Positions 3,421 through 27,300 of a DNA stretch of 35,247 bases are shown here, piece by piece. Each line of letters begins with the position of its first letter. Positions within the stretch are counted from its first letter, which is position 1. This stretch comes from Psammoneis japonica (lineage: Eukaryota). The notes below the pieces were generated by a model, which made no database searches, was not told the DNA's origin, and saw nothing but the letters and a program-made list of their open reading frames with translations. Where the stretch lies: NCBI GenBank assembly GCA_008632985.1, contig QPGO01000086.1, forward strand, positions 310,001 to 345,247, written 5' to 3'. A program made the translations under genes and the position numbers.

Positions 3421-4295
3421 CAGAGCCACCGATGCTCGATCACTCATCGTCAAGCCTTCTGCTGCCTCTGCTACTAGCTACAGGAGCTATGGCTACTGAA
3501 ATGGTAGAGAGCAAAAGTAGATACAAAGGATGACGCGTTCTACAATAGTTTCAAGTTCTCAGTTCTCCACTTGCGAGCTAGAAAAGAGAGCAGTATCCAG
3601 CCCCATACCTGAACTCGAAGCGCCTCGTCGAAGCTGCGAGGATCTATTGTACTATTCTCTCGAATTCGAAAGGATAGAGTGCCGTATCCTTCCAACTGGA
3701 GAGAGTACAGCAGACTTATACTTGTTGCGATGGCGACGGTACTTTGCAAAAAGAAGTGTAGTAGAGAAGGCAACTGAACTAGACGAGATCTTTTTCACAA
3801 AACGTAAAGAGCTACTAAAACAATTTCAACAAACTTGAACCCCTCCCCATGCTCTCTTGTCGTTTTACACAACATAAAATTCAGTCAACCACGTCACTGT
3901 CAAATAACCCATGGATGTAGACTGGACGCGCGCCCAACAACGAAGAGTATGCATTGGCCCTTCGCCGTCCAGCCTTCTGAAACCCTTGAAACGGATAAAG
4001 ATGTGTAGGAATCACGTCATTACTCCACGCAGACGCCAAGCCTGGATGTGCAATATCGTACACAGTCTTCATCCCTTCCTCAAACTCTGTTCCTGGTTGG
4101 GACCAGGCTTGAGGAAGGTCTGGAAACCTAGAAGAGCACATTGACGAATGGGACCTGTAACGAGTGCGAAAGTAGAAGCAACAAAAAGTTTATGTGAGAG
4201 ACATATCGAGAGGATTGAATGCGTTGCCCCCGACGCATGTAATATCAGTGACATCCCCGCCTCTCGTGTCACTCAAGCATAAACATGGTGTTGCT

Positions 4296-5677
4296 TCAAT
4301 CTTTGGATGCGGTGTCGGGCGGACTCGTCTCCTGCCGTTGTTTGGAGTGGTTAGGCACGGGAACTATTTGATCATAAAAGCCAGAAATATGCAACCATTC
4401 CTCTGGAGGAATAGCATCATCTCGCCACATCAAATGGTCCGCCAGTGCCCCGCACTCACAAACAGTGCCCGACTCTGCAGCATTTCCACACTGGCAAAAG
4501 CAGATTGGCTTGTAGACACCAGATGCTTGTCTGCTTAGTGACGGAGAGGTCGTGGAGGACCGACGAGACACTGACCTACTACTGCGACCTTCGAAACACC
4601 ATTCTTTCCAGCACGTACCTCGTTTTTGGAATCGTTCATCAGCGCGCCGATTCCTCCGAGGTCCCCGTGGCTGGAACTACTGTCTGTCAGACTCTTGGAA
4701 AGTTTCGCTTTCCCGTTCCTGCCCAAAGCCTCGTCTTCAAACTCATCTTCAAAGGGATTGACAAATGGAGCGCCGAGAAAGCTTGCATCCTTGTCCGTAT
4801 CATCCAACGCCAAGGAGTTTGTCCTAACCAAGTTCTCCTCCTTCTTATTTTTCACCGACGGTGGCATAGCAAACGCAGACGACGGGGGCCAGCCAAATTT
4901 GATTGGTGGGACTGGTTTCAACGGCGGAGTTTCGTCATTGGGTGGTGGTGTGGGTGCCGTGGTTCGTGGGTCGGACACGTCATCGCTTCTGCTGTCGTGT
5001 TTCGCCTTGGCTCTCTTTTTGGGCGGATGCATCGCTTCCTGTCGCTCCTCCTCTTCCGCTTCCCTTTTTGCGGCTTCAGCATTTCGCTTTAGCGCATTGA
5101 CAGCCGCAGCTGAAGCTCTACTGAGAGGCTGGATTGGTCTGACGCCTATCGGTTGATTCAAGACTGGCGTGGCGAGTCTGACTTCAGCTGTTCGAGAACG
5201 CTTCTCATCCATGGCATGGTCCGCTCGAATCTTTGGAGCCCCCTCCCGTAACGCCTGACTCGTCTTTTGCATAGCCTTTTCATCTGATACCTCCACCCAT
5301 CCAACAAGCCCGTTACCATAACCTCCTTTTGCGTCCGGGTCCTTGGCTAAGAATCGACCCGGCGGATCCAAACTCTTGACTCGGTCCACGATTTCCCGTG
5401 AAACTCTCGCTTTCTCCGTCTTGTTGGCTGCAAGGTTGTATTCGTTCTTTCGCTCTCTCACCCAATCACGAAACGTAATGTTGCCCGGATGAGAATTTAT
5501 GCCACCGCCACGTCCGGATAAGACATCGTGATCGTGAGGATTTCGTATAAGAGTCTTGGCTTCCCCGTGCAAGCCCGTAGACACCACGTAAGAAGCCCCG
5601 TTCGCGGATACAAAGTCAGATTTCACTGTTCTCCCTCGCGTCTTGGCGCCGCTTCTGTTTCTTGTCAATGTGCTCAT
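4296..5677 (-). CDS. DUF6824-domain protein; main ORF 4535..5677, probably extended to 4296 by a Cys-rich C-terminal segment
   Basis: Contains 'HDVLSGRGGGINSHPGN..FR..V...K.EY.....EK......I...V....PPGRFL...W.EV..EKAMQKTSQALRE'. A downstream frame encodes CFCQCG...CECG, but the junction (intron or frameshift near 4570-4620) is unresolved. Confidence 0.8.
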
Positions 5678-6354
5678 GATGTATAAGTTGCTCTGAATAT
5701 TGTAGTGATGGATGTAAAGAAGTGGTGCGTTGTTGATGTGTAACTATAAAATGGTTTGTTCTTGTTGACAATGCTGCTTCGTTGTGATGTATTACGTTTT
5801 TTTCGCGAACCTGTTGTCACCGTCCTGTGTCATCACGCGTTCTTTCTGAGTCGCGTTCCGAACTCGATCGAAACGTGGGATTGGTACTGCTTACACACGT
5901 AGAATGACTCATCCTTTTTCTACGTGGCATCTCCATACAACGCTACTGAGTCGTGAGTCAGGTTCTCGTCCGTTGGTCGCTCTTTTGCTGCAACCAGCCG
6001 TCGGACATTCTTTTCACCAGTATGTTTTCTACGTGAATCTACAGGAGGGCAGCCACATCACGAACTTCAATATGACGTCAGACAGAACAGCTGGAGCGAA
6101 GGATGATGTCAAGATGACGTTGACAACTAGTGTCAAATTTTGACGTCTGTCTTTCGAACGATTTTCGATTCCGGCTTCGCCGCGCTTTTTGTTCGGGACC
6201 ATGGTGTTTTGCAGCTTGTCCTGCCGTCCATCTCATGACTTTGAGAAACGAGGTCAGCAGACGAAGATGGCAAGTCATCAACGTAGGCTACATTGCAAAT
6301 GCGAACGCCGTGACCCTTACACAACGGAAACATGAAAAACAGTCCTGCGGGATT

Positions 6355-6355
<1 letters not shown>

Positions 6356-6397
<42 letters not shown>
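6356..6397. repeat. (CT)n microsatellite
   Basis: Uninterrupted CT dinucleotide run. Confidence 0.95.
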
Positions 6398-6400
<3 letters not shown>

Positions 6401-7244
6401 CTGCTCTCCAGCATATAGTCGTTCGATCTTGAGGAAGTGAAATTCATGCTCTTCTGTACATCGTCATACAGAAAGGATCAACCTCGAATTTTTTTCTGAC
6501 GCGGATGGGAATCAAGGACCAATTAATTGTATGGATGAATTCAACAAAAAATTGTTCCCGCCACCAAGCGTAAAGGACACACGATGAAGCGCATCGCAAA
6601 GTCAAGATGTCACTTTTCGCCGTGTCAAGTCACTCCAACGGCAAGGCGCAAGGAGTCGCATTGATAACTTTGAACAATGGGGAATGACGATTATTATGAT
6701 GATGACGGCTACTATTCCAATTACGTGAGAACGACGCAAGACGCAGGGCCGTGGTTGTTCTGGTCCGTGGTTGCGATTGTCATTTCGTTGTTTCTGTCGA
6801 TATTCCCATTAGGTAAGTGTTTTGGGGGATTTTGACAATACTCATTATTATTCGGTAGTCAAGCTCATCTTTTTGTTTCCCCTGCATGTCAGTTTGGATG
6901 GGAAGAAAATGGAAAAAGTTCCGCAAGGCGAGAAAACGAGCAAGAGCCTTCGCGAAGGCTGCCAATCAAGAAAAGGAAAGGGTATGTTGGCTGTTTATTC
7001 TGTATCTAATGATGTTGTTACACGTCTCTTATAACACAGCATCATGGCTATTATTTATTAAACAGAGCGAGCACATGGAGCATGGGTATGAGGCAATGAG
7101 TGACGAACCGAATGCCGGAATGAGCAAGGACCAATAGAGTCGGTGATTACAGAATGTGCCAAGGATTAGTCTCCTACTTTGATGCCATTGGAGCAGGTTA
7201 CCGACAATGCTAGTTTTAACCAAGCCAAACAGGCTCCACCAAGA

Positions 7245-8037: not shown

Positions 8038-10250
8038 ATTCTCGATCCTTTTGTATTCGAAGACGACCAGCTGCAAAAGACTGAAACAATTTCTCATTTT
8101 GATGAAGACGGGGTACCCGGAACAAACCAGATTGATCTATTTGAGACCAGCATTCTTGACCAACGTGCCTGTGTGCCGCAGAAAGGGCGTGCTGCCCCTG
8201 GAAGAAAAGTTCGAGCGGCACCTGTGGTTCTGTCGGACACAGACGTGAATGACGACGATACTGGGGACATGCCGGACAATGGCCCAGAAGGCACAAGGGT
8301 GCCGATTACACGTTAGAGGAGTCTTCAGAGGATAGCTCGGACGACGAAGGCAAAGAGGGTGAGACAGAATTTGATTTGTTCATGCGGGAGACTACACGGG
8401 GCTGGGAAACGTTAAAAGCTGTCTTGAGCCTCGACAGAGAAACGAAAAAGATTTTTCGACTGGCGGCACCTGCTACGTTCTCGGCCATCAGCTCAGCAGC
8501 AATGGACGCAATAAGTAAGCTGATTGTCGTTGAATACGTCTTGTACCGAATGCGTATTGCCGTCTGTGTTTGGTTCTCTCACAATACTTCCTGCTTAAAT
8601 AGCCACTGCGTTGATTGCACAGAATGCCGGTACAGAGGCTTTCGCCGCATATTCAATGGTTGGTGTCTTTTTGGGATTGACAGACTCGCTTACAAGTGGC
8701 GTCGCGGAGGCCGAAGGTGTTTTGACGGCGCAAGCAATTGGGATGGACAATGGCTTTCTAGCAGGACAATACGCACAGCTATCACTTGTACTTTACCTCA
8801 TTGGCGCAGTTCCCATGTATACCATGTGGACTTTCTTTGCCGACAAGGCCGTTCTTGCATTTGGAATGGACGAAACGGTGGCAATGCTAACTCGTGAATA
8901 TATCCCAATCGCAGTTTTTAGCTACATGTACGTGCTGCTTAGATACAATCCCTTGCCACGGAGGGCTAATCTCGATTGCTTTTCATACGAACTAAACTCA
9001 CGGTGATTCTGCTGTTCTTCCGACAGGGGTGGTGGGATCGCTTCAGGTTTAGGAACATTAATGTGGAGCGCTGACCATGGTGGTTTTATGACAGCAGTTG
9101 ACACAGTGTTCTCTGTACTTTATGTGGTTGCCATTGCCGCCGCGTGCGCCGCCTTTGACCATCTCGCTCTAACTACGATTGCTTGGATTGGAATCGGCTA
9201 CTCCATTCTTTACGGAAGCTTTGTGTTCTCTGCAACAAAACGCAGAGGGATGCTTGATCCCTACTGGAAGGGATTGTTCAAAAGATTCGCGCTCAAGGTG
9301 AGTTCTTGATTACTGATATGTTTGAATTTGAAGAGCGTGCTTCTGAACGTAATTCTTCGATTCTTTATAGAACTTCAATCTGGTGAAAGGAGTTGTGAAA
9401 ATGGCGTTGCCTCTCTCATTTGGAACTTTAATGTCGACAGGAGAAGTAAGTTGAAGCCGTGAACAGCAATTTCGCCATGGTGTTTGAAGATGTGTCTCAC
9501 AGTCCGTCTATATAGTGGGAGATTCTTACGTTCTTTGCGGCAAGAATGGGAGGCGCCGAAGTTGCAGCCTGGTATATTGCAGGGGCCATCTGGAGTGTTT
9601 TCGAATATGCTCCAGGGGGCATCGGCACGGCGGCCGAAATTCGGATCGGCTATCATCTCGGGAACGGCAATCCTCGCATGGCGAAGCTAGCTGCATACAA
9701 AAGTCTCTTGTACTCTGGGTTGTGGTCGGCGCTTATTACAGTCATTTTCTCAGTCTTTTCTCGCAATATTATCGGCTTGTTTACAAGTGATCCTACGTTG
9801 ATTTATCTTTTGGAAGAGTGCGTCCCGCTCATGGCGATCGGGAATGTGCTGTGCTGCCTTGGCAATGATGCCTACAGTGTTATTTCAGCACAGAGCCGTC
9901 CTAAACTGTGTACAAAAGTCTACCTGGTGTTTACATGGTGTGTTGTGCTTCCTTTATCGGGATACTTGGTTTTCTACAGAAATTTTGGTTTGCCAGCACT
10001 TATTGCGTCTGTGGTTGTTTCGTACGGAACGATTGCTGTGTGTTTTCTCTATGGTGAGTTGCATTCTTTAGATAGTTCTAAACCACTTGCTTGTTGATTT
10101 TTCCTTTCTCATGCTTCTAATCGCCATTATCTTTCAGTGGTATTTACATCGAACTGGTCCAAACTTAGCAAAAAGGTCATTGCCAAAGCGAATGAGATGG
10201 AAGGAGATGAGGAGTCAAAATGCGTCGGTAAACAAGATGTTCTTGTGTGA
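8038..10250 (+). CDS. MATE-family (DinF/NorM-like) multidrug/toxin extrusion transporter, multi-exon; 5' end uncertain, possibly from ~6886
   Basis: Segments 'KIFRLAAPATFSAI', 'LTAQAIGMDNGFLAGQYAQ', 'GIGTAAEIRIGYHLGNGNPRMAK' and 'IIGLFTSDPTLI' are typical MATE motifs. GT-AG introns are present; the last is 10054-10137 and the stop TGA is at 10248-10250. There is an apparent frameshift near 8310. Confidence 0.85.
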
Positions 10251-10299
10251 GCGCGCTGCAGGAACCCCTGCTTCGCTGTGATCATCTCAGCATTGTTCT

Positions 10300-10530
10300 T
10301 GTGCCAGCCCGTATATTTTTCCTTTGGGACGTATTGCTGTCGCACTTCTCTACTGTCTGCACTGACCTGTTTGTAGGATCGTGTTGCCTCAAACATCGTT
10401 GCAAGATGTCTCACGGGCCTACTGGTTTGCCTAGATCCCGCCATCAGTTGTCTTTACGTCGAACTGGTCCAGCAAAAAAAGTCATTTTGAAAATCGAATA
10501 AATGTGGAAGAGGAGGACAGGGACAGCGAA
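10300..10530 (+). pseudogene. Remnant duplicate of the MATE 3' end
   Basis: GRIAVALLY plus an intron-like stretch plus VVFTSNWS (GTTGTCTTTACGTCGAACTGGTCC at ~10447) parallels GTIAVCFLY|VVFTSNWSK (GTGGTATTTACATCGAACTGGTCC at ~10137). Confidence 0.6.
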
Positions 10531-10731: not shown

Positions 10732-10759
10732 AGAGAGAGAGAGAGAGAGAGAGAGAGAG
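10732..10759. repeat. (AG)n microsatellite preceded by CTCTAG
   Basis: AG dinucleotide run starting within CTCTAGAG (10728). Confidence 0.95.
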
Positions 10760-10769: not shown

Positions 10770-13700
10770 CTCTAGAGAGGTACGTAGATGTTCTAGGAGG
10801 TAAAGCTGAGAAGATCTGATGCAGGCGGTATAGGGCCCTGCTGTAGATGTGCTCTGTGCTTGGCCTCTACTCTAGCTAGCGAGCTCTGTTGGCAGAGAGG
10901 CAGAGGTTCGTTCGTTCGCGTTGCCATGCTTTTAAACTATAGAAATTACGTAAGCCCATGCAGAAATAGAAGCGATGAGGGAAGCAGCAAGAGGTGGCAC
11001 ACGGAGGGAGCTGCAGGAGCAGGAGGAAAGAAGGGGCGGGCAAGGCAGCATGCCGGAGGTTTAAGGAAGGAGCCGGAGCAAAAGGAGAAAGGAGAGAGGA
11101 GAGGAAACAAAGAGTGTGTGCGGCAGAGTGGTGAAAAATGTTGCATCCAAGGGTCTGCACAGCCCATTGAGAGGGAGAAGCAGAATGATGGAGCTGCCAA
11201 AGTGATCAGTGGCAAGTTGATCCCATGCAAAGTTGGCAGCAGGAAGGAGAGCCAAAGGAGAAGTGTGAGCACAGGAGAAGGCGTCAACAAAGGATGCAGT
11301 TGAAGGCTGCAAGAAAGAGTGGTCAGGCCAGGGAGGCTTGGATTGGAAGAAGCCAAGACCACCAAGATGGTTGACAGCAAAAAGAAGAAGAAAGATCCCA
11401 CTGGCATTGAGGGATTGACCAGCAAGGACCTGTCAGAAGAAGAGGCAGAAGGGCCCAAAAACCTCAATCTTGTGCTTGAATGGTGTGCCTCAGTCAAAGT
11501 GGGAGAAGAAGGGAAAGAAGCCAAGACCACCAACATGGCAGACAGCAAAAGGCAGAAGAGAGATCTCACTGGCATTGAGGGATTGAACAGCAAGGGAGCT
11601 GTCAGGAGAGGAAGAGGCAGAAGGGCTTGAAAACTTTGATCTTGCACTCAAATGGTGCTGCGAGTCAGTTAAAATGGGAGAAGAAGGGGTGGGCAGACCA
11701 GGAGGAGGGCAAGGGGGAGTTTTGGAGACAGCGACATCAATGATTGATGGCAACATGTCAATGCTGAGAGGGAGTGGAAATGGAGGCAGGGGGGTGGCAC
11801 CAATGCCAACGTTGGTCGGGCAAAGGAGAGGCCAATGCAGGAGGAGGTTCGCAGGCTCAAGGTGAGCATCATTGGGCACAAGGACAAAGATGGCATCTCA
11901 GATGCTGTTGGAAAGCTTGGACTTGTGACTGTGCTTGCACGCAAAGGGATGATCCCCGAAGGCATCAAGTGTGGTGTGACTGCAAGGACAAGAAGAGTTG
12001 ACAAGGAGAGTTGACAAGGGAAGAGGGGGCACCAGGAGGCAAAGCTTGCATTGAACTGCCACAGCGCACTTGTCAGAGGCAAGGCAAGAGGCAGCAAAGC
12101 AGCGGGAGAGAGAATGAAGTGGGAGGCTGGCAAGGGGATTGGCAGGAGCATGTCAGCAAGGGCAGCAGAGATGATGTGTTGTGCTGATGAGCATGACAGA
12201 GCCTGCGGGCTGGGCCGGGGAGTGTTGCAGACTCAACCAACAACCAAAGCAAAGGGGGAGCTGGGGCAGATGGAGATGAGTCAGAAGAAAGGGTGGAGGC
12301 AAAGCAGCAGAAGAGGGTGCAGAGGCACAGATGAGAGCAAGGGGCCAAGGCTGTTGCCAGAGGGAAGCTGCACTCCTTGAGCGGAGAAGCAGAAAGAGCA
12401 AAGGAGGGAGACAAGGAACAATGGGATGGTGTGGCGGCAGTGGGATCTTGAAGACCAAAGCCACCAAGGGACGCAGGGAGAAAGGCAATGGCCAGAGAGC
12501 AAGGAGGAAGAGCACCGGCATGGGTGGAGGCATGGAGAAGGAAGTGTTGGATGATGGTGAGCAGGAAGTCTTGCAAGGGAGAAGTCCAGAGAAAGGGGTG
12601 GGGCAGGGGCGGGACAGGCTGTCAGAATTAAAGTTGCAAGAGAAATCAGTGCCAAGAAGACAGGCTTTGGAGGAGAGGGAGGAGGAAATGTTGGAGAAGA
12701 GGGAGAGTTTGCTGAGGCTTGAGAGCCAAGAGGCTGGCCAAGGAAGCAAACACTGGAGGCAAGTTTGAGATCACAGGAGGGATCAGCAGAGGGGCTGAGA
12801 AGGAGAGAGCATCCTGCAGGGAGGAGGTCAAGGACCAAGGGAGGGTGGAGAGGGGGTTGGTGCCATTGATGGAGGCAACAATTTTGGTTGTGCTGAGATT
12901 GAGCTTGATGCCACAAAGCAGCAAAGGAAACAAGGAATGATGGGGAGGGAGAGAAAGGCATTGACATTGTCAATGTGAGAAGAACCAGCAGACGATCAAG
13001 AGCAGGAGGCAAGACATTGCTGAATTTCTTGGCTGGTGGGACAAAGGACACAAGAGAGCACCTGGGCATGCAAAGACAGGGCCAAGGGGGCAGCCTTGAG
13101 CAAAGCTTTCTTGCTGTGCAAAAGAGCTCCAAGTGGAGTCAGGTCAGTGACACCAGCACTCATTGGAGTTCTGACAAATGATGGGATCAAAAAACGAAAG
13201 CACAGGACTGAGAGATTCCTTGGAAGAAAGGATGTCATGGCAGGCATCACAAAAGAGATCTCATCAACAACTTGATGAGGTCAAGAAGGAGCAAGGCCTT
13301 GGAAGGAGCAGCCAAAGAGAGGTGGTGTTCAATGTTGGTGTGAGCAGAATGGACAAGAAAGTCAAGACCACCCTTGACACTGACACCAAACTGACCATGG
13401 GGGAGAAGGAACTTGGAACTCAGAGCAAAACAGAGTCACAATGATGGAGCCAGACAGGCAGCAAAGAGCAGCGCCAACACCATTGGGCAGAGCTTGCAGT
13501 CAAGATCAGCAGGATCTTTATGAAGTGTGCCACAAAGCAGCTGGAGGAGAGAAAGGGGTGGGACAGAGGCGCGCAGGGACCAATCCATTGTGAGAACAAG
13601 AAGGAGGAGAACCTGAGGGGATGAAAAGCAAGAATTTTGTTGGGTGGAGCCAGAGGGCGACTCTCAGCAGAGTGCAGAGCACAGGCCTTGAGAAGATTGA

Positions 13701-14400
13701 TGGAGTCAGCAAAAACTTTAGCAGCAGTTGCTGGCTTGCATCTGCCAAGAGCCAAGAGCCAAAAAGGGGCTCAGAGGACAGGAAGATGGGGTCATTGCTG
13801 GGAGAGGAGGAAGAGCAAGCAGAATGTGCTGGATGCATTCTTTGATGTCTGCAGAACACACCTGGGCAACTGTTCATGATGTGCTGCAAGTGTGAAGGAG
13901 GAGACAGGTTCGTAAAATTGCCTCTTTTTCTGTTGATGATCATTTGCATTTTCATTGCTTGACAAATTTACTGTGGAGCTCACACACAGAATTCTGTGGG
14001 CCAAATGTCACACGGAATCCTGCCTGGGACTGGAGCCGGTCTGCCAAGGGTGGAAGCAACAATGTTGGCATTGAGGGTGGTCCAGGGCACAGAGTGCTTG
14101 TGGCATGAAGGTGACCCTCAAGATGGCATGGAGAGAAAGGCAGGTGCACTTGCTGTGGTTGCAATGTCTGCAGGTGTGCAGGTTGGTGGCTTTGAAGAAC
14201 TTGTTGTGAACATGAGAAAGGGAGAAATGGGGGTGCTGCCAGTGAAAATGGCTGAGCACAAGTTTCAGTGGGGATGCCACGGGTGGAAGAAATGTGTGTC
14301 AGAAAAAAAGTTGGCAGATGGAGCGCAACTGGGCAACAGACAGACAAATGCGACAGAAGAGTTGTCCCCATGCTTTTCGTGCGGCATTCAATGCTGACAG
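10770..14400 (-). mobile_element. Decayed non-LTR retrotransposon with restriction-like endonuclease (CRE-clade-like), near full length
   Basis: Motifs occur in the expected order on the minus strand: N-terminal C/H-rich zinc-finger-like region (~14150-14370); RT motifs FAQQESFAQGCPL (~13083-13123), HIDNVNAF (from YIDD, 12954-12977) and GIKLNLSTTKI; GGFGLQDP (~12445-12470); CCHC knuckle CPCSHTTLDAFGDHPFAC...LSNSI*D (~11895-11990); RLE-like EPANLLL...IIDVAV. Many TGA stops and frameshifts. Confidence 0.85.
11346..11689. repeat. Diverged ~170-bp tandem duplication within the retrotransposon 3' region
   Basis: AAGCCAAGACCACCAA...GACAGCAAAA...CTGGCATTGAGGGATTGA...GAAGAGGCAGAAGGGC...TGGGAGAAGAAGGG occurs twice (11346-11513 and 11514-11689). 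Confidence 0.9.
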
Positions 14401-14619
14401 TGGTGTGCTGCTGGCAATGCTGTTGGCTGGTTTTCATGCAACAAAACACACCACATGCATCTTGTGGTGAGCAATGAGCAGGGATGTTTGCCCACATTGA
14501 CCGTGGATGCAGTTTGTGGTTGATTTTGGGGCATTGCTGTTGCTGCTGGGTTTTTGCAATTTTCTGTGCAAATTGCACACAGCAACAATGCAAGATGTTG
14601 ACAACAAGGGCATCATTTT

Positions 14620-17600
14620 GAATGATTGGGCAGAGCTGTCAGACAGACACCACCAGCAATGCATGGTGACAGGTTTTTTTGTGCCAGCAGCAATGTGGCA
14701 ATCTTCAACACAGATGATGAAGGAAACTGCACCCGGAGCAAACATGAGGAAATTGCCAACAGCGCTCAGAAGGCCACCACTCTTAGCCTTTGCAGGGGTG
14801 CACCAAGGTCTTTGCACTGGATGCCAAAATGCTGCATGAGCTGCATGAATTCTCACCCAAAGGTGAAGTGCCGCCACACTTCATCAGCTCCTCCAATGAT
14901 GGCAAGTGGTTTGCCCTCTTGTTTCAGAATTGCAACCTTTGCATTTGCAACAGCAGTGAGCAGAAACTGAGAAAGGCCAGCCTTTGGTCACAGGGCCACA
15001 TCTCTGCCATGACCTTCAACAGCCCTGATTTGATGCTCCTCATCAATCAAGTGGTGCAGGTGCAAGAGTTGATGGGGTTCTTGCCTTCATTGATGGCACA
15101 GCAAACTCTCGGCCCAAGCTGCCTGGAGTCAATGAAGGCTCAGCCCAAGCTGCCTGGAGTCAATGAAGGCTGGTGGCCCTTTGGCATTTGCATCAGCACA
15201 GCGGCCATTTGCCATGGGATGGTGGTGCCGCTGTGCATGATTCTGTCATGACCAGGAGAGTTGGGCAGGATGATGCACTGTGCCATGATTGGCAAAAACA
15301 CCCATGCCCTTGACAGCGCCCAGCACAATGGGGCTTGGCCAAGTCATCAGCAGCCACCAACTTGCTCAATTTGATTCATGGCAGCCAGCACAGAGCTGTG
15401 CTCTCTTCATTGCTGCAATGCTCACAATCAGCTGTTGGAACATCAAGCAGCGCAAATTCTCTTTGCACCCCCACTGGGGCAAAGGAGTGGCCCCAAAGTG
15501 CAACGGAGCATTGATGCAAATCTTTGGTCCAAAGAAAACTTGGCAAAAAAGACACCCCACATCATTGCAAGCAGCTGTGTTTGCAAGCACTTTTGCCTTT
15601 TGCCCTCACATGTGGGCAGCTTCTGCACCTTTGATGGGGCCTCTTCTTCTTGGCATCATGATTCTTGAGGACATCTGATGGGCCAATTGGTTTGCAACAC
15701 TCTGGTGGTTCTTGCCACCTTCCCATTCACCGTCACCACTGTCCCAGTGACAGGTCAAGGCCTGCTCAAAGCAGGCATGCTTGATCTTGGAAAAGTGCAA
15801 TTGACGAATGACAAAAATGTCTTCTGAGACACCAAGCATGGCCATGGGCTGCAACTGGCATTGCCGCTTTCAGTTCTGCCTTTGCCGCCTGCAGAATGAC
15901 AGATGTCCATTGGGACAATGACAACAGCAATGGTGATCGTGCCATGGGGGCCAACTGGTGGATTTCTGGTGGAACAATGGCACTCAGTGATGTGGTGCCA
16001 TTCTCCAGCAACACCATGCACACTGCCAGACCAACCATGATGATTGGATCAGGCAACAGTTTTTCTGCTGCCGAGGTCTTCGTGGGCAACACAGCCCATC
16101 TGGCGGGCAGCTGTCCTTTGCAGGGGAGATGCACATTGACAATGCCGCCACCAACGGGCAAGTCAACACAATGGGCAACACTTGAGTGTTGGTTCATTGA
16201 ACTTTGCATGGCTTTTTGGCACGTTGGACAGCAGGAACATTGGTGCAGGTCAACAACTTGATGCTGCAAATCAGCCTGGGAAGCGGGGCATCAAACCAGA
16301 TCCCTGATGCCTCCAGCCTTGATGTGGGTGGTGGTTTGGGCCTGTTCCTCTTTCAGGCATGGCAGGCACGGCACATCCCAACTTGCCATCAGGTTGCAAC
16401 TCCTTGCTGATGCTGGGAGCCGGCAGCGGCAGCAGCACATTCACTGGTGCACTCAACGACAACAGCATGGAGGTTTTGTTGTCAAAAGGAAGGCCGGCAG
16501 TGGTGCACAAATCCTCACTCCCACTGCAGCCAATGGCTTCACAGGAACAACCACCATTGCCAGCAGTGCACTGCTGCTGGCAAGTTCCATCACCAATGAC
16601 ACGCTGCAAGTCTGTGGCAATGCTCTGTCCAAAGCCTTCATTTGAGTTTCTTCTTGGGCTGAAGTTTGAAATGCTCTGTTGACTCCAAGCTCTGACACCA
16701 TCTTGCTCAACTCCATGATCTGAACAGTTGCAAGTTGGCAGTTGATTTTGGCGCCTCTTGTGTTGCAACATCTCAAGACAAACATTTTGTTGATCTCCTC
16801 ATGCAAAAAGTCATGAAGCTGTTCCAGATCTTGAGAGTTGTGCACTTTGACAAAGGCAGCTTTTCTTTGCATTTGGATGAATTCTGCTCAGGCAATGGCT
16901 GTTGTGGAACATTGTCCAGCACAAGCACACAGCACCCAATGGCAACTGAAGACAGCTTGGATGGAGCAAGCCACCCATTGCTGCAACACTTCAATGGATG
17001 TCAAGAAGACATTTCTTCTTGGAGAGACAACACTTGAAATTTGGCTGTGAACAATTGCACTGTCATCTTCCCATTCCTGTCTTTGCAAACAAGCAAGAGT
17101 TTGCAGGCAGTGCTGTCCCCATCATCACTCCATCGTGCTGCTCTGGAGTTGTGATTGGTTGATTGTTGACAGTTGCTTCTGTTGATCAGCGTGCAACTCA
17201 AACAACCGTGCAAACCATTTTGTCGCCACTCCATCTGCAGAACAATGACAAGTTCTGATCCAGATGCAAGAAGGTGAATGTCATGTAAAATCTCACTGTG
17301 AGTCTGTGCAGATGTGGCGCACTTCCTCCAGGCCATCTGGGGAAGTTGGGTGTGTCCACACAAAGTGAGTGCACTTTTGATTGGTCCACGCCAAAGATGT
17401 TGCAATTTTTTTGGCCATTTTGAATCCTTGCTGGGCATGACATCGGATGAGCAATGGTGGTGCTCGCATGACACAAATTTACACTCAGCATCAACACAGA
17501 AGACAAATCAAAAATTTCAGACAAATTTAGAAATGACAACAACTGCCCAAGGAGAGCCACTTGTCAATGTCAATGCAAAGCCAACTGGGAACACTGTCGC

Positions 17601-18290
17601 CATTTCCATCTGAGAGTTTTTTTGACGAGCTGAATTTTGGAGGTGAGCTCAAGCTGTCCAAGTGGGAAAGACCCCAAGAAGTGGAGGCACTGCAAGTCAG
17701 CTCATCATCGTCCTCACTGTCACACTGCCAACTCTCTTTTTTCTTCAGAACACAAAGTTTGTTTGCAACATTGAGTGTCTTGTCAAAAGCAATCTGTGCT
17801 GGCTTTGAGACCGAGAGGGCAACAAGATCAACATCCAAAAAGTCATGGCCATGCAAGTCTTCACAACTTTCTGGTGGACACAAATCTGGTGCTTTCTCCT
17901 TGCTCCAGTTTTCAACAACATTGCCTGCCTCAGCATCAAGTCACCCCTTGTCAAACAAAAGGACCAAGTGCTGGGGTTGGACTGACACCCCAAATGCTGT
18001 CAAGATTTTTGTCGGCAATTTTGTCAACTGTGGCTTGATGGCATTTTCCCAAGGAATTCACCCGGCGCCCCCTTTTGAAGGAATGAGCAGAACTTTGCAA
18101 AGGCCAATTTGCCTCTGATGAATTTTGGAGAGAAACATGTTCCTGCAGCAGCCCGGGTCCACATCTTCTTCAATTTGTTCCCAACAGAAGTGCGAACTCA
18201 ATTGCAGCATTGTCAACTTGCGCGCAAAATTCTTTTAGCCACTGACCGGCAGTTTTCAAGAATGGGGCGGCATCGGCTCTTCACCATCAT
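14620..18290 (-). pseudogene. Decayed long gene (~1,200 codons) of unrecognised family
   Basis: ORFs 16453..16872 and 15766..16269 share one frame, broken only by TGA codons plausibly derived from CGA. The frame continues to ~15140 and resumes after removing a 31-bp duplication (AWAESLL...AVANAKVAILKQEGKPLAIIGGADEVWRHFTFG). Further protein-like segments run up to ~18290. Confidence 0.6.
15108..15171. repeat. 31-bp tandem duplication
   Basis: CTC(G/A)GCCCAAGCTGCCTGGAGTCAATGAAGG occurs twice. The only difference is CG (15110) versus CA (15141). Confidence 0.9.
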
Positions 18291-18409
18291 TGTTTGTCGG
18301 CTTGTCTGTCGTGTTGTGTGGGAAGTTGGGCAAAAACAATCAGTCGAACCAGTCAAGTTTCTGCGAACACCGATTTGTTGTTGTTGCCACAGACCCATTT
18401 TTTTTTCAT

Positions 18410-19042
18410 GACAACCTGGCTTGCCTGCCCCCGCCCTTGACCCTCATGCCGAGGCACACCATGCAAGCACAAAATGGAAGTTCAACAGAACCCACAAGAC
18501 CCAACATGAAGCAACCCTCACATCCGCCCTTGACAATGCCGGTGTCCACCTCATTTCCTTTGCCATCGACCACCTGGGAGCTCCAGGCTGCTTCGCCCAC
18601 CGCCTTCTTTTTGGTGCCAACCAAGACCTCCCCATCCCTGCTCCACCCACCCCACCTTGGAACACTGAAACCTGTTTTCAACACCCAGCTGCCCACGCCG
18701 CATGCGCCTGTGCCCAACAATCTCCGTCTGCCATCCTCCCTGCGGTCACCGCCACTTGGCAAACCATCTCTGCCGAACGCTTTGGCCTGACCCACCACTC
18801 CTCAACACCATCACAATGGGGTCTACAGAGCCTGAGCCTCGCGATTACCAAATCGCTCGCTGACCAACTAACCCGCTACTCCACCAAACTACAATCGCAA
18901 ACATCAAACCCCAACTCGAAATCCATCCCTTTTCCCACCTGCATGACTCAGTTCCGCCATTGCCCCGCGTCTGTCCCTCCCCCCGCGCCACTAGGTGACG
19001 TTGCACGTGAACTTCTCACGCCGCGCGTACTACACTCTAGAG
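18410..19042 (+). mobile_element. 5'-truncated 3' fragment of a related CRE-like retrotransposon
   Basis: EAHHASTKWKF...LDNAGVHLISFAIDHLGAPGCF is homologous to minus-strand EAHHSSTRLRF...LNASGIFLLLFAVNHLGGLGFF of the first element. Ends in CGTACTACACTCTAGAG. Confidence 0.7.
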
Positions 19043-19245
19043 CCCTAATAGCTACCGTAGCAGGGATAAAAGAAAAACCTTCGACTCTTGCATTGCTTGG
19101 CATTGGGCGTTGGCTTTGTGGAGATCACTTCCGTTGTTGATTCTCTGTTCGTATTTACACTGTATTTTTGAGGCGTTTCGACAGAAATCGTAAAGAAGAA
19201 GGCTAGTTAATTTGCAAGGCTCCTGAAAAGTCCTTCGACCAAGAA

Positions 19246-20388
19246 ATGGTTGCTACCGATGTCCGACCATCGACCAAGGCGAAACTTCTAAACAAGAAGA
19301 CTCTCAACTACGTTGATTATGAGCAAAAGCATCGGGAACATCTATTCACCTTTCCCAAGTTCTTGGAAGATTGGGTTGTGGAGACCTTTCTTCGACGCAA
19401 GGATCGCCGAAACCTAGGAATCTTTTACGTGGGCATGAACATTCTTGCAACCAGTTTGCCAGTTGCCGTTATGTTGTACTACATCGAACAAAACAATCTT
19501 CTACCTGTGAGCCAACAAATCATTCTTGGAGTTGCATACACAGCTATTCATATGAAGTGCTGGGGACGATCTTTCGTGTTGGCATTGCACTTCATTTCGC
19601 ATTGTTCCATTTTCAACTCGACCTACCGTTTCTTGGACCACGTTTTCAAGGCTGGTATTTGCGTCATGTTTGGTATTCCTCCTGGCCTCTACTACCCTCA
19701 CCACATTGGTATGCATCATGCAGTTGACAATGTTGCTCCTCACGACATGAGTTCCACTATGGATTATGATCGCTCCTCCAAGTGGAATCATTTCAAGTAC
19801 ATGTTCCGTTTCTGGTCGTTTGGTAACTTGGAATTGCCATTCCGACTTATGCAAATGAACAAGCCTGGCTTGGCACTGCAATCTCTTACAGGCTCGATCA
19901 CTTTTGTTGCTATTCTTTCCTATGCCTACATGAACAGCCCAATCGCCGCCATGTTCACTTTGATTCTTCCGTGGATCTTTATCAGTTTCGGTTTGATGCA
20001 AGGAAACTTCAAGGAACACATTTTCGTTGATCCCGAGGACTACGGCAACAACTACAAGACTGCCATGAGCTGCATCAACTGTCCTTCCAACTCTCTCAAC
20101 TTCAACACTGGATACCACATTGAACACCACGAAGAGCCTGGTCTACCATGGTATCAACTTCCCGACTTGTTTTTGAAGAATTTGGACAAGCACGCTGCGA
20201 ACGATTCCCTCATCTTTGACGGCATTGGAACAATGGAAGTGGGAACATTGGTTCTCAACGGAAAGTTTGATGAATTGGCCAAGTACTACTTGAATGTTGG
20301 TCAACCAAAGCGAACCCACGAAGAATTGGTGGCCGAATTCAAACGCCGATTACTTCCTGTGGATCTCTCCAAAGCCGGCAAGGAGTAG
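19246..20388 (+). CDS. Membrane-bound fatty acid desaturase family protein (380 aa, intronless)
   Basis: Three histidine boxes (HFISH, HHIGMHH, YHIEHH) with intervening hydrophobic segments. Intact ORF with a pyrimidine-ending codon preference. Confidence 0.9.
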   Translation: MVATDVRPSTKAKLLNKKTLNYVDYEQKHREHLFTFPKFLEDWVVETFLRRKDRRNLGIFYVGMNILATSLPVAVMLYYIEQNNLLPVSQQIILGVAYTAIHMKCWGRSFVLALHFISHCSIFNSTYRFLDHVFKAGICVMFGIPPGLYYPHHIGMHHAVDNVAPHDMSSTMDYDRSSKWNHFKYMFRFWSFGNLELPFRLMQMNKPGLALQSLTGSITFVAILSYAYMNSPIAAMFTLILPWIFISFGLMQGNFKEHIFVDPEDYGNNYKTAMSCINCPSNSLNFNTGYHIEHHEEPGLPWYQLPDLFLKNLDKHAANDSLIFDGIGTMEVGTLVLNGKFDELAKYYLNVGQPKRTHEELVAEFKRRLLPVDLSKAGKE

Positions 20389-20661
20389 GGCCCCTAAATA
20401 ATCCTGTTTCTTCTACTTATTCATGCGCTACAAATCTGCCCATTCCATTTTGAATACAAGGCCTTCGACGCCTTTGCCCTACCTGCCCATTTTAGCATGA
20501 CGAGTCAATATTTTTTGGAGCTGCCATGAATCCGTGTCATTCCTTTCTGAGAAATGGCCTCATTGCAGCTTCAATAACTCTTCTAGCTACAACCATGTCA
20601 AATACAGTGTCAGGATAGCGGAGTAGTATTTATGTCACCAGTGGCAGCAACAGCAGTTTTA

Positions 20662-23220
20662 CTAGAATGTTACATCGCAAACTTCGTTTGCAACAGCTTC
20701 GTTGCTGAGGTAGTCCTCCATCATTTCTTCCAGGGCGTGCAATCGTGAACGTTTCAAGTCTGCGTCATTCGCGAGGTGACTTTGTTCCATGGTAACCACG
20801 GCAATGGCCTTTTCGACAAATCGCAGGGCCAATTTGACGCCTGCACCATTCTCAAACAAGTTGTTCATGGCATCTGCCATGGCATTGACTTTGTCCTCGT
20901 CCAGGGTCGAGGACATGTTCTCAGTTGCACTGAAACTATCCCGCAGCAGCTGTGCCATTGATTCAGATCCAACTGGCTGGGGAACTGCAACTGTTTGGAC
21001 AAAGCACTCATTCAAAACAGAGCAGGCAGCATTGGACATTGATGTGGCAGCAATGACTCAAAAGTGTTTTTCAGTCACCTTGGACTGACTGACTGCCTTG
21101 GCTGCAGTGGATGTTGCAGGTGGAGTTTGCAGCAGTGCCCGCAGAGTGGAAATCATGGCGCCACTGCAGCCATTGGGTCCAGATCCCGCACAAACTTGGT
21201 CAATGTCCTTCAGAACTGGAAGAGACCCGGGCATTTCTCAGGCTTCCACAAACTTTTCTGCCAGAGCAGCAGCCTGTCCAGCCCCCATCGACCAGCAAGT
21301 CCAGTGCTGTTGCAAAGCAAACAAATTCTGATGCTCCAGTTGAGAGGAAGCTTTGGCAGCCAGCAGTCTGGGTGGCAAGCGCAGTGGCTCCACACCTGCT
21401 TCCAGTGCCACCACCAACTGGTGGCATTGACTCTGCCAATTCCAAAGTGAAAGATCTCAAAGGCAGTGCAACAAATTGATCAAGATCACAGAGGACTCGC
21501 TTCATGGAAGAAGAGCAAAGGCCAGTGCCATGAGGACATCTTGCCTTCAAAACTTCATCTTGCTTCCCAAGGACTGGCCGAACTTCTCTCAAGGCATCAT
21601 TGAGGTCTTTGACTGCAAGAACACCATTGGCACCATCATCATCCTGCTGCTCTTTGGCGCGTGCCAAGGCAAAGCTTGCAGTGCTCCATGCCAAGCCTGC
21701 AAGTTCAGCTCCAGTGCAGTGCTCTGTGATGACAGGCAATCCCTTCTTGCCAAGGTCTTCAAGACATGCTTGGGCATCTTTGCGGATGCCACCTGCCTCC
21801 TTCATTGACCTTGCATGAGCTCAAAGAATGTCTCTTCTGCCAGCATCATCAGGCAATTCCACCCAATGATGCACTTCCAGTCAACCAGGATGCAAGAATG
21901 CTGGGTCCAGCAGCTCACAGGTTGATTCACACAAGTCCAACAATGAGGACATTGTCAGCCTCTTGGACTCCATCCATCTTGGCCAACAGTTGGTTGGCAA
22001 TGCTGCCATGCACTCCAGCCATGTTGCTTGTCACACTGCCTCTCTTTCCAGTGATGGCATCCATTTCATCAAGAACAACAACATGTGAAGAGCAGACATG
22101 ATGTTGCCAACTTGTTTGCATTCATCAAGAATTTTGGGGCAGTTGACAATTTGTTCTTGGGTGCCCAACAAGGTTGCCAACTCTCTTGCCAACAAGGTCA
22201 CTCCACAACCAGGATGCCCACTCAGAAGAATGCCTTGGACATGGTTGATGCCCAGTCATTTGGCAGCTTCAGGGTTGGCACCACTGGCAAGAACATGGTG
22301 GATGACAGAGTCCAGCTGGACATCCAAGCCACCAACCTTGTCAAAGGTTGAGTTCAATCATTCTCCCAAGGGTTTCTTTTCTGAGGCATTCTCCCCTTCA
22401 GCTTCATTGCTGGCTTCTCTGTTTGGTCTGTTTGTCTTGCACTCCTCTTCCTCTTTGGCTGGCTCAGGCGCAATGACCAAGAACTCCAAAATGTGATTCT
22501 CAGACAAGGTGTGCAGTGGGCCTCCCACACATTTGATGTGGGCTTTGCTGTCTGTCAAAAGGTCTCCTCTTCTTCATCTTTTTTTTTTCAATGCAGTGTG
22601 CACAGACCTCCCAAGAAGCTTGCATTGCCACCACCACAAACATCTTTTTTCAAAGTCTTTTGACAGAACCCTGCATTCTGACCAGGCCCTTGGAGCAACC
22701 ACACTTCCACGATGGAGTCAAGGGCTTGACTGCTGACCAACTTCCTGTGGGCACTGATGCTGCCATTGACCATGATCTTGAGAGAGGATGTGCAAAAAGG
22801 CACCCCAATCCTGGCCTCCAGCCAGACAAAATCAAGGAGGTTGTGGGGCACCGGCATCTGCTTTGGCCAAGAGTTGGTTGCAGGCCCTGCCTTGGACTCG
22901 GGCTTGATGTTGACAAGGTCCATGAGATGCGCCACAGCATCATTGTCCCCCCAAGTCTGTGGTTGATGGAGCATCTGGCTCCACAGCAGTCTTGAAACTT
23001 GCCTGATGCAAAGCTGCTGGTGTTTCTGTTGAATCCAGGGCAACACGGTCGGATGGAGTTGAGCCCAAGAAGGTGATGGCGGAGGGACCCACCCAAGCTT
23101 CAATGGATTGCAACAAAGCCAGAAGCAGAAATGGAGAGTGGTCAAGAGACAAGGCTGATTCACTGCAAAAGAGCTCTTGCAAACACTCTCCATGTCGTGG
23201 AACGCTGCGAAAGCTTTCAA
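20662..23220 (-). pseudogene. NSF/Sec18-like vesicle-fusing AAA+ ATPase pseudogene
   Basis: Reads GGLDVQLDSVIHHVLAS...AAK*LGINHVQGILLSGHPGCGVTLLARELA (decayed Walker A), HVVVLDEMDAITGKRGS...SIANQLLAKMDGVQEADNVLIVG (Walker B region) and EHCTGAELAGL. The C-terminal ORF 20662..21039 is still open. The 5' limit is approximate. Confidence 0.85.
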
Positions 23221-23529
23221 TTTCCGAAAGTGGGTTGCTGGGGCATCGCTTGGGTGCAGATTCGTTCCACACCATCGTCAACTCAGTGTTGCTTTTTGGC
23301 CTTGTCCAGAATGACATTTTTTTGTCTGTTTGTGTGTGCCTTTGTTGGAGGAGTCAATGCCAGATGAAATTTTATCAGAGCCTTCATTTGCACTCGTGGT
23401 TGATTGCTCATCTGCGTGTTTTGACATTGCAGGCATGCCTTGTGTTTGTGCCCCCAGTGAGACATGACTCAGATGTGATTTCCCAACCATGTTCATGCAT
23501 TCCATGTTCTGTTTGCTTGAAAAAGTCTG
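20939..23529. other. Hypermutated domain 2 (TpA/CpG depleted), fading out to ~24030
   Basis: Manual count: one TA (23373, in TTTTA) in ~2.6 kb, and four more between 23530 and 24030. Confidence 0.95.
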
Positions 23530-24354
23530 TAGAGACAGGATGAACATGCCCACAACACCACATGAAAAAAAGGAAAAACGAGTTTGGCCGGCACAGCCGC
23601 TGTTGTTCTAGAAAGCTTGGCCGCTGGAGACCAAAAAATCATCAGAGAGAGAAACAATCTAAGACCAACACTTGAAATGCTGGCACACATCAAAGGAGGA
23701 CACTTCTGAGGGGAAGAGCTGTGTGAGAGCATCAGCAACAATCGACTGTTGTTGTGAAAGGCTGACAACCGAAAGTTTTGCGGCAAATTCAAAGCTTCTC
23801 AATCTTTTGAAACTGACGAACGAGAGACAAAAGTGCCGTCTGATTTTTTCATCCATCAATGACCCTTGACAAGCCATCAAGAAGGTGCAGCAAAGAGCTG
23901 CTGCGCCCGGGAAGGGCCGCTGGTAACGCGTGTCAATGCCATGTCGTTTTGTGGTGGGTGATGGCTTTCCGGTCTGCGAAGAGTGAGATCGCGAGTGTGG
24001 GTCCGAAATGATTTGCGGAAGTTTGTCCAATAAGTGATCTATAAATATCCGGATACATCATTCATTGATCTAACGGTCGAAAAATTTCTTTTATTAAGTA
24101 CACGTGGAAAGCACGCCAGATCACTTAAGAACTACGACGTCAAGTTTCTCCGTCCTAAATAAATAAAAATTCGATATGAAAATTTCATTTTGTCTGCCGG
24201 TATTTTTGGCGGGAAAACTCCGCTCGCGATCCAAGTACGATGCATGCGGGACGCGACATGAAGCGGAAGAATTCACAAACGTGCCGGAGTTGTTTCCCGG
24301 CAATCCCGTCGTGTGGGGGTGATAACTGCGAAGTAGTAGCCATCACCACCCCAC

Positions 24355-27300
24355 ATGACTGAGACCATGATGGCTGGAGGAGTGGCGGTAGAAGACGCCG
24401 GGCCTCGGCAACTTTTCCCCGAGGCAACAACCATGACGCAGAACAACATTGGCTCGCCGGCGTCAACTTCGACCGCAACACCGCAAACTGACAACCGTGA
24501 AGACACAGCAGGCGAGGATCCGCCTACCAAGCCACTCGTAGAACCATCAACAGCTCTGCAGCAGCCATCCATTCTGGAAACCATTGGGCCCTCTGCTACG
24601 GCGCGGCCTCCAGTTGCTGCGGTCGACTCCAGAGGCTCAACCAGAACGTCTAGTAAATCAGAGCGAAGGAGGAGGCGTAAGAAAGCAAATTCAGACTTGG
24701 GCCCCATGCTGACGGAAGAAGAGCAGTATGCTTCTAATGAGTTTGGGAAGAAAGCAGTAAGCGAACGTCATCATTCTCGGCGCCACCATCACCACCATCG
24801 ACGAACGACCAGTGAAGATTATCGTTACTACGGACATCCTCAGGAAGATCCATATTATGCGCAACAGATGCAGCAGCGCTACCCCATCCCTCCTCAACTG
24901 TATCCTCCAGCCACGTATCAGGAGTATATGTTACAGCAGCAGCAACAGCAGCAGCAACAGCAGCAGCAGGTAATGTATCAGAGTCCACCAGCGCACCAAC
25001 GTATGCGTGGGCATCACCGTGTTCAGAGTGATCCCAACGTACCGGTTCCAGATATGGTAGGATATTGGAATGGTCAGTCACCCGCCCTTTCTCCTGCGGG
25101 CAATCCCCTCATTCCTATTTTAAATCAAGATGGGATGGCCGTAGACGCATCACCTATGGAGAATGGTGGTTCTCGTCGTATCCGCAACCAACAGTTCTCT
25201 AGCAACCGGGTACGATCCTCTTCTGCTTCAGGACAAATCCAGCAGCAGTACGGCTCCATGCAGCAGCCAGTTCCGCCTCCAACATCCGCCGGAATTACTC
25301 CCGAAAAGAGCTCCCCTCGACAGCAATATTCTCCTCGCAGTCAGTTTTCTCCTCGCGGCGAAATCATGTCGTTGGCCAATGCCTTTTCGCCGCAGCGACC
25401 AACAAGTGGGAGCCGAAGGACACCCCCACAGTCTCCTGTACAAACCTACCAACAGGTTTCGCCTCACACAACCATGGGCATTCCGCCGGGCTTGTCTCCG
25501 GCAACCATGACTCCTCCTCCGGCATCGGTCCTTCGCAAAGGAAGTAATAGTGGTCCGTCATCGTATCCCGGCGGTGGTGAGGATCCTCGTGGTGTGACGT
25601 TTTCTCCTCACACACCCGTAGCTTGGGATACTTTGTGGAAGAGGGTGGTGGTGTCCCTGAGGACTTGATTCAGCCAACAAGGAATCATCATCGTCCGGTA
25701 GGCACAAGCGATCGGCGCAATCCATCCGAAAGATGAATATGCGACAGCAGTCGGCACAAATCTACATGGAAGAATCCAAGGGTACGCAACAGCCCAAGGC
25801 TTGCAGGGATGTCTTGTTTGCAGTCTTGTTTGTCTTGCACTTGATTGGCATGGTGTACTTGGGTTCCATGTATGGTCCCGACGCGTTTAGCAGAAGGAAC
25901 GGTTCAATTGATGACGACGATGATCCTTTACACGTGACGGTGGCTTATGCAAATGTCATTTATGTGGCTTGTCTCTGCGGGGCCTTTGCAATTGCCGTGT
26001 CGTCGCTCGTCTTGTGGCTCATGGCAGTGTTTGCTCGTCGTGTGGTTCAAGTGGCGCTCATTCTGACGATTGGTTTGAGCTTTTGCTGGGGAACCATTGG
26101 GATTGGTCTGAGCCCAAAGAATATTGTTCCCATTACCGGAATCATTGCCCTTGCACTGAGTGTTGGTTATACCTTTGTCGTTTGGGACCGTATCCCCTTT
26201 GCCACGGCGAATCTGCTGACGGCGCTCAGTGCTATCCGAGAAAACTTTGGAACCGTGTTAATTTCATTTTTCTTTCAAGGATTGGCGTTGGGTTGGTCCA
26301 TTTACTACACCTTTGTTGTTGTGGGTGTATACGACGCCATTGAAACTGGCGATCTTGTCATTGGTAAACAGGCTACAATATTTCTGTACACCATGCTTGC
26401 CATTTCTTACTATTGGACATTTCATGTGCTATTGGTAAGAATATTGTTTACGATTGTTGTGTCTCAGTACGGAGTTTCGATTCATCTAATCCTCTATTTT
26501 CACGGTTTGCTGTTCAGAATATTGTCCAAGTTTCGGTGGCCGGGACGATTGGTTGTTGGTGGTTTAAGGAACATGCTCGATTTTGCGACGGAACTCCTAC
26601 AAGGAATGTCTTGTATTCAATTTCCTTGTACTTTGGATCCATTTGCTTTGGAAGCCTTCTTGTCGGACCCGTCCGTCTCATTCGTCAGTTTTCGCTCTTT
26701 TTCCGTCCCAACCAAGTGGATGACACGGCTCTCATGTGCTTGCACGAGTGCCTGTCGTGTATTCAAAATTGCATTGCTTCCGTGGCGGACAATTTGGCGG
26801 CATATTTTAATCCGTTTGCTTTTACCTATGTTGGATTGTATGGATATAGCTTGCTTGATGCCGGTCACCATGCCACGAAGCTATTTGAGAAGCGAGGCTG
26901 GGCGCAGATTGTGGCGGACGACTTGATCCCAAACATTTTACTCATGGTTAGTCTGGTAATTGGAGGCTGCACCGGGGTCTTTGGGTCTTTGGTGGAAGAT
27001 TTGGAAGGATTTAACTTTATCAATGGCGACAGAGAAGCTTTGCAGGGAGCGACGGCAAAGGCGTTTGCGTAAGTTCTAATTTCCAGTGGAAGCTCGTTTG
27101 CCTTGTTTGTTTCCTTGCTCATTTCTTATTTGTATCGCACACGATAGAATTGGCGTGCTTGTCGGGCTGGTATTGACCAGTGTCCTGTTTGGAATCATTA
27201 GTAGCTCGGTCAATGCCGTTCTCGTTTGTTTTGCGGGAAGCCCGGTGGAATTCGAAAGGTACCATCCTGAACTAAGCCACGAAATGAGAGCTGCGTGGAG

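Follow-up and report, generated by a model that had tools for sequence, protein, structure and literature searches.

What has removed nearly every TpA step from two neighboring blocks of diatom DNA? The window analyzed here is a 35,247-nucleotide stretch of Psammoneis japonica (contig QPGO01000086.1, positions 310,001 to 345,247), and all of our findings concern this one locus in this one organism. It holds two domains that are nearly free of TA and poor in CG: domain 1 (10969–18825, 7.86 kb), which appears repeat-related and non-coding, and domain 2 (20936–23924, 2.99 kb), which contains a pseudogene of the NSF (vesicle-fusing AAA ATPase) type. A preliminary description made from the letters alone had reported two such domains with an excess of TG and CA. 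Both were confirmed by a scan in 500-base windows, with observed/expected ratios (o/e) calculated per window, and by counts against expectations obtained as the per-base rates of the flanks multiplied by domain length. From the sequence evidence set out below, we consider it likely (probability about 0.7) that both blocks were mutated in place by transitions turning CpG and TpA into TpG or CpA.

Relative to the flank rate, both domains retained 4% of TA and 24% of CG, the erasure of TA being the more complete. In domain 1 we counted 13 TA against 327.8 expected and 108 CG against 448.3, with TG and CA raised to 785 and 866 (561.8 and 530.1 expected). Domain 2 contained 5 TA (124.7 expected), 42 CG (170.6), 301 TG (213.7) and 333 CA (201.7). 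The earlier manual figure of 13 TA for both domains together was therefore close, since domain 1 alone has 13 and domain 2 adds 5 or 6 depending on the choice of edge; likewise domain 2 is real, but its TA footprint continues about 0.4 kb beyond the right end first given (23529), to about 23924. Every 500-base window within 11001–18500 and 21001–23500 contained 0 to 4 TA (o/e 0.00–0.13), with a CG o/e of 0.03–0.59 (below 0.35 except in two edge windows) and a mean TG/CA o/e of 1.53–1.99, compared with 0.28–1.24 for TA and 0.6–1.4 for CG in flanking windows. Whole-domain ratios were 0.03 for TA, 0.21–0.23 for CG and 1.64–1.78 for TG and CA. The longest TA-free runs in the domains were 2502 and 2436 bases, the latter at 20937–23373 in domain 2, and no such run exceeded 223 bases anywhere else in the window.

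The combined deficit of TA and CG came to about 655 against a TG and CA surplus of about 559 in domain 1, and to about 249 against about 218 in domain 2. All four pyrimidine-purine steps summed to 0.226–0.228 per base in the domains versus 0.233–0.243 in the flanks, a near-constant total that is as expected if TA and CG changed by transitions only. Both strands appear to have been hit, because TG and CA gained about equally and because changes from TA to TG and from TA to CA in the pseudogene stand at 6 to 5. The remaining twelve dinucleotides stayed close to flank values with small shifts only. AA, GA and AT were not depleted (AA o/e 1.12–1.20 versus 1.14 in the flanks), AC was lowered to 0.80–0.82 (0.95–0.97 in the flanks) and GT to 0.76–0.80 (0.89–0.96), and GC (1.22–1.23) and TT (1.29–1.45) were shifted upward in both domains. 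The dip in AC and GT may reflect a weaker second target, with A before C changing to G. The G+C content of the domains remained about 0.50–0.51, and residual CG was enriched in G/C-rich surroundings.

The direction of change could be read from the NSF-type pseudogene (20662–23088, minus strand), which is broken by in-frame TGA stops and frame shifts. Its first identification, from the letters, was borne out: Pfam AAA matched a read-through frame of domain 2 (E 7e-6), and the first 92 of 117 matches in a word-indexed protein search were vesicle-fusing-ATPase-like (E <= 8e-58, 43–53% identity), from diatoms wherever the source was named. By tblastn, residues 106–868 of an 869-residue homologue (P0008) were matched in two frames, and alignment to the family consensus showed both nucleotide-binding regions, riddled with changes, in the colinear two-AAA-domain order of NSF. 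Residue polarity was taken from columns with a residue common to at least 50% of the 92 homologues. None of six conserved Tyr was retained, three having become Cys (TGY), two Leu and one Phe. Conserved Arg was retained in 11 of 43 columns, and 20 of the 32 changes led to Cys, His, Gln, Trp or a TGA stop; with at least five in-frame TGA at conserved Arg, in addition to a frame shift, the reported turning of Arg positions into TGA, His or Cys is seen at the conserved columns of the gene. Leu gave way to Pro (CCA) six times and Val to Ala (GCA) three times, and the surviving Leu codons were all TTG, CTG, CTT or CTC. By comparison, Phe was retained in 6 of 7 columns and His in 5 of 6. A CTGAEL motif, reported as a decayed YTGAEL, does stand at 21718, but homologues carry F in this column in 78 of 92 cases and Y in 14 of 92, so that an origin from Y is possible and not the likelier one.

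A stricter set of columns, common to at least 80% of the homologues (n = 302), was used for the analysis of single steps. Changes were found in 116 of the 302, 72 of them single-step and 44 multi-step. The 72 single steps comprised 18 CG>CA, 8 CG>TG, 6 TA>TG, 5 TA>CA, 10 other transitions and 25 transversions, so that 37 of the 47 single transitions belonged to the four classes joining CG and TA to CA and TG. The coding part at 20938–22840 contained no TA at all, where by our estimate random change of that size would have introduced about 15 or more. That many other substitutions left no new TA suggests that the erasure was long-lasting or may still be running.

The pseudogene also crosses the border of its domain. 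Its last approximately 90 codons and TAG stop (20662–20664) occupy 20662–20935 on the minus strand, outside domain 2 and in DNA of normal composition, where TA and CG were ordinary, one Tyr codon was retained and the conserved columns of the family were matched. The tblastn match ran unbroken through 20936 to 20665–20671, ending where the homologues end. Because the gene continues across 20936 into a normal 3' end, the border would be regional rather than the end of a gene or element. The left edge of domain 1 was sharp, at 10969. At its right edge CG was back near 18050 and TA only from 18824, which leaves a right margin (18050–18825) where TA was still erased and CG mostly retained; the window 18001–18500 had one TA (o/e 0.03) and 17 CG (0.59), and the window 18501–19000 had 26 CG (0.77). 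In domain 2 CG was back from about 23200. Both gene-facing margins (18050–18825 and about 23200–23924) were thus nearly without TA at a CG o/e of 0.4–0.8, and the loss of TA therefore does not simply track the loss of CG base for base.

Between the two domains lies an unmutated island (18826–20935; TA o/e 0.53, CG o/e 0.84) with an intact fatty-acid desaturase gene (19246–20388, plus strand; 380-codon open frame; Pfam FA_desaturase, E 9e-23). A desaturase-anchored search of metagenomes for the orthologous locus returned eight loci, the best at 66% protein identity and none close enough to serve. None of these eight showed a TA-free, CG-poor stretch, and one of them (L008) was G+C-rich with normal CG.

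Domain 1 is, judging from its matches, repeat-related. Of three sequencing runs compared with the window, one (X1) yielded 1100 contigs of 80–99% likeness to it, mostly on domain 1, which differed from it at 522 transition places and 161 transversion places. Within the domain, tandem and direct-repeat detection found a tandem duplicate (11347–11688, plus strand) of two units of about 168 bases, which are 83% identical in four letters and 92% identical when written as purine and pyrimidine. When aligned, the units differ by four swaps between TG and CA, one TG/CG and one CA paired with a surviving TA. A two-letter swap of this kind is expected when an ancestral TA or CG was resolved independently in each unit, which indicates that the mutation acted after the duplication. 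These swaps and the codon polarity of the pseudogene support the mutational conversion of TA and CG into TG and CA that the preliminary description had proposed, rather than a native composition. When the window was searched for intact paralogues by sensitive blastn and by a purine/pyrimidine-coded self-comparison, nothing emerged beyond this tandem duplicate and noise from purine tracts.

Protein searches of domain 1 returned very little. Among 132 open frames of 90 codons or more, Pfam assigned no family within the domains at E <= 0.01 apart from chance-level Dynein_C and PATR. With domain 1 read through in all six frames and the cut-off relaxed to E <= 1, no believable family appeared (one weak PATR match was surely chance). 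HMMER with a 1200-residue read-through of 14530–18129 (minus strand) found 0 matches among 1.84 billion representatives. The proposal that a reverse transcriptase motif, YIDD, had decayed to HIDN was not upheld: the letters are present, but no RVT family was detected in six frames (Pfam, E <= 1), and the 285-residue open reading frame that carries them had no homologue in a word-indexed protein search (0 of 7999 candidates, lengths 156–499, at E <= 0.001).

Two local features of domain 1 were also observed. The plus strand of 11000–14000 is strongly purine-rich (GC skew +0.24 to +0.45, AT skew +0.26 to +0.42). This bias does not come from TA or CG transitions and is thus probably a native feature of the repeat, and the long minus-strand open frames found there are a product of composition alone. 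At 13868–13933 the depth of X1 contigs was far above that of the surroundings and many contigs terminated at its borders; this segment may be part of some small element that is very abundant. Just upstream of it, a consensus of 12 X1 contigs reads TTTAATG where the window has TTTGATG, that is TA versus TG at 13844.

Several observations weigh against mutation in place, or against parts of it. Residual TA was not randomly placed, 11 of 18 being preceded by T compared with 22% in the flanks (p = 4e-4). The conserved columns of the pseudogene also show 25 transversions and 44 multi-step changes, so that part of its divergence is ordinary decay, or the gene was an old divergent paralogue, and this weakens the argument for an ongoing process; the case for long-lasting erasure is likewise weaker if the gene had already diverged as a paralogue before its death. 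As no intact DNA-level relative was found, the direction of change had to be read from protein columns, a single tandem duplicate and a small number of differences between reads. The sharp edge at 10969 is also compatible with an element that was mutated before landing.

Of the explanations other than mutation in place at both steps, the one that survived best, and which we consider unlikely, is a process of the type of repeat-induced point mutation (RIP), in which duplicated DNA would be recognized, perhaps premeiotically, and mutated by diatom DNMT4 and a partner, the edges being the ends of duplicates. As in ascomycete RIP (RID, DIM-2), the transition hypermutation is regional, near-saturating and set in a dinucleotide context, stops fill repeats and gene copies, edges are sharp and an end may fall inside a gene. 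The repeat-related nature of domain 1 speaks for such a process, and the edge within the NSF-type gene could mark where a partial duplicate stops. In PMC9998398, diatom DNMT4, of which the function is not known, is described as related to fungal RID and as present in 31 of 60 diatom species surveyed. Opposed to this are few extra X1 contigs on domain 2 compared with many on domain 1 (contig depth not being copy number), the failure to see a partner copy, and the chemistry. The changes that RIP makes are all from C:G to T:A, mostly at CpA, which becomes TpA, so that TpA is created and G+C is lowered, whereas in this diatom lineage the domains lose TpA, half of the events run from A:T to G:C and G+C is maintained. 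Changes of TA to TG or CA accounted for 11 of the 72 single steps in the pseudogene, 313 of about 328 expected TA are gone from domain 1, and A:T-to-G:C changes are beyond a cytosine methyltransferase or deaminase. RIP is recognized by a high TpA/ApT (about 0.89) and a low (CpA+TpG)/(ApC+GpT) (about 1.03). We obtained 0.033 and 2.16 for domain 1, 0.032 and 2.12 for domain 2, and 0.72 and 1.18 for the left flank; the indices are reversed, and RIP had rightly been set apart from this signature in the preliminary description. A RIP-type trigger is possible for the targeting, though not for the A:T-to-G:C chemistry.

Less probable again is editing before integration, in which the RNA or cDNA of a mobile element would have undergone ADAR-like A-to-I editing together with cytidine deamination before it was copied into the genome. 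In double-stranded RNA, hyper-editing by ADAR gives clustered A-to-I changes, read as G, and prefers A following U (or a 5' T in DNA terms); the clustered A-to-G changes after T seen here are alike in this respect, and the sharp left edge at 10969 and the repeat-related content of domain 1 would also fit. ADAR, however, acts on RNA, edits A after A as well, needs reverse transcription and could not end partway through a resident gene. We found AA undepleted, TG and CA gained about equally so that both strands were hit, and an edge within the NSF-type gene, which continues unbroken into its unmutated 3' end. The tandem copies diverged by TG-to-CA swaps after their duplication, and no reverse transcriptase was found by Pfam in six frames or by the protein searches with the read-through and the HIDN frame.

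It is very improbable that the bases are an artefact of sequencing or assembly, through modified bases misread in silent DNA or foreign DNA joined in. All runs matching the window come from one sample of one study, with none from a second laboratory, which leaves some room for it. The X1 contigs were assembled from 31-letter words and hence derive from accurate reads; they reproduce the TA-free sequence, being identical to the window over 12473–12893, 17762–18096 and 23125–23524, and a single contig of 2695 bases spans 19082–21783, from the desaturase across the edge into domain 2. X1 is not simply the assembly restated, as it differs from the window at 5 of 1306 flank bases and at 16 of 797 bases of domain 1. 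Inside the domains 31 differences were listed; at 12 of these positions (10 events) TA, CG, TG and CA are exchanged for one another, and the exchanges run both ways, with TA in X1 against TG in the window and the reverse. A misread palindromic TA would be expected to yield TG on one strand and CA on the other, and so no clean contigs, and the stops and residue changes of the pseudogene are consistent with real mutation. Equally improbable is a native or selected composition, with DNA that always lacked TA and CG because it was foreign or selected against these steps: joint suppression of CpG and UpA is described for RNA viruses and the mRNAs of their hosts (PMC5659819), but Tyr cannot be encoded without TA and is gone from all six conserved columns, the gene is broken by stops and normal beyond 20936, and at 13844, where the window reads TG, other copies read TA.

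If both blocks were mutated in place, the targets would be the two self-complementary pyrimidine-purine steps, CpG and TpA, each resolved to TpG or CpA. The CpG half would be the decay of methylated CpG in silenced DNA. 5-Methylcytosine deaminates to T, and the domains resemble methylated-CpG decay of the vertebrate type in the change of CG to TG or CA, in a CG o/e of about 0.2 and in the G/C-rich setting of the CG that are left. CG was depleted with a gain of TG and CA, and Arg codons of the form CGN became TGN or CAN. According to PMC9998398, diatom transposons are CpG-methylated and DNMT5a maintains the methylation. The CG half thus fits with nothing new being required, the domains presumably being methylated. 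Such decay fails as the whole explanation, because TpA has no cytosine to deaminate and yet its o/e is 0.03, and because the loss of TA is fuller and extends about 0.7 kb further at two margins; the earlier statement that CpG decay alone cannot remove TpA holds.

The TpA half would be an A:T-to-G:C transition specific to TpA, alike on both strands and near-saturating, with limits set by region and not by genes or elements, and it would be persistent rather than a single old burst. The chemistry that we would prefer, tentatively, is that a putative deaminase, recruited to the same silent chromatin as the CpG decay, hydrolytically deaminates adenine at TpA, the resulting hypoxanthine being copied as G. 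Hypoxanthine pairs with C, and the trypanosome ADAT2/3 is an example of an enzyme of the deaminase fold that acts on both A and C. An oxidized thymine of the 5-formyluracil type, made by a TET/JBP-like enzyme and mispairing with G, is a less probable route, one in which T and 5-methylcytosine, both of them 5-methylpyrimidines, would be handled in the same way when a purine follows. Less probable than either is repair synthesis by an error-prone polymerase, triggered by T:G mismatches. The model for it is the second phase of antibody somatic hypermutation, with AID, mismatch repair and polymerase eta at WA motifs, in which cytosine deamination is likewise followed by nearby A:T mutations, with TA as a hot spot and A-to-G changes common. 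WA includes AA, however, which is undepleted here, and the spectrum of somatic hypermutation has many transversions; to our knowledge its A:T phase occurs only in vertebrate B cells. The repair-synthesis route is weakened because AA and TT were not depleted, and for the same reason polymerase-eta-type synthesis was set aside as a sole cause. Some other chemistry that we have not thought of is about as probable as adenine deamination. Going a step further, a dedicated diatom genome-defence activity might act on duplex chromosomal DNA of silenced domains and edit both CpG (C:G to T:A) and TpA (A:T to G:C) to exhaustion. It would amount to a natural TpA-specific DNA adenine (or thymine) editor and to a second, independent case of mutational silencing, outside the fungi; we regard this extension as possible but less likely than not.

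In a search of open full-text literature, with subscription journals and supplements outside its scope, neither mutation that erases TpA nor RIP-like mutation turned up for diatoms or other stramenopiles, and term look-ups in two diatom papers (PMC2806351 and PMC12718438) likewise met with no reference to hypermutation, to the loss of TpA or to RIP-like mutation in diatoms. The loss of CG at methylated sites is ordinary; for TA erasure of this kind, no described process was found in the literature covered.

The rest of the window was surveyed with Pfam on open frames, which identified two DUF6824 genes, a MatE transporter, the fatty-acid desaturase, a GNAT acetyltransferase and a gene resembling choline transporters. 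From this content, and from the diatom relatives of the NSF-type gene, the window has the look of nuclear DNA of a diatom. Scanning its whole length with Rfam and for tRNAs gave no matches. Three adjacent long open frames were observed on the minus strand of 437–5743, two of them with DUF6824: one frame (1845–3149, minus strand) has two copies of the domain and includes a 318-base tandem repeat (2239–2845; 1.9 copies, 93% alike), and the other (4538–5743, minus strand) has one copy. The MatE transporter gene lies at 8599–10354. A single contig of another run, X2, covers it at 9023–9295, 9516–10052 and 10137–10354 and omits 9296–9515 and 10053–10136. These gaps resemble a spliced transcript with two introns, and X2, despite its label "DNA?", probably derives from RNA. 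X2 contigs were almost absent from domains 1 and 2, a blank cover that is not evidence of silence. Two microsatellites were found, (CT)25 at 6356–6408 and (AG)14 at 10732–10759, the latter 210 bases outside the left edge of domain 1. To the right of domain 2, a 442-codon open frame (24340–25665) matched no Pfam family, and a 573-codon open frame (29295–31013, plus strand) matched none except a chance-level Baculo_PEP_C.

Fungi supply most of what is known of regional hypermutation as a defence against mobile DNA, and there it changes only C to T. If mutation in place is correct, A:T-to-G:C removal of TpA would add a new mutational chemistry to those of eukaryotic chromatin. It could lead to a naturally occurring enzyme with the ability to edit A:T pairs in DNA, which would be relevant to base-editing tools. 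Long TA-free, CG-poor runs form a signature for which any genome can be scanned, and the destruction of a resident gene up to a sharp internal border makes the setting of that border directly testable. For diatoms, such a process would account for the part of their repeat DNA that is invisible to homology searches, as in the 7.9 kb here in which no protein family was recognized.

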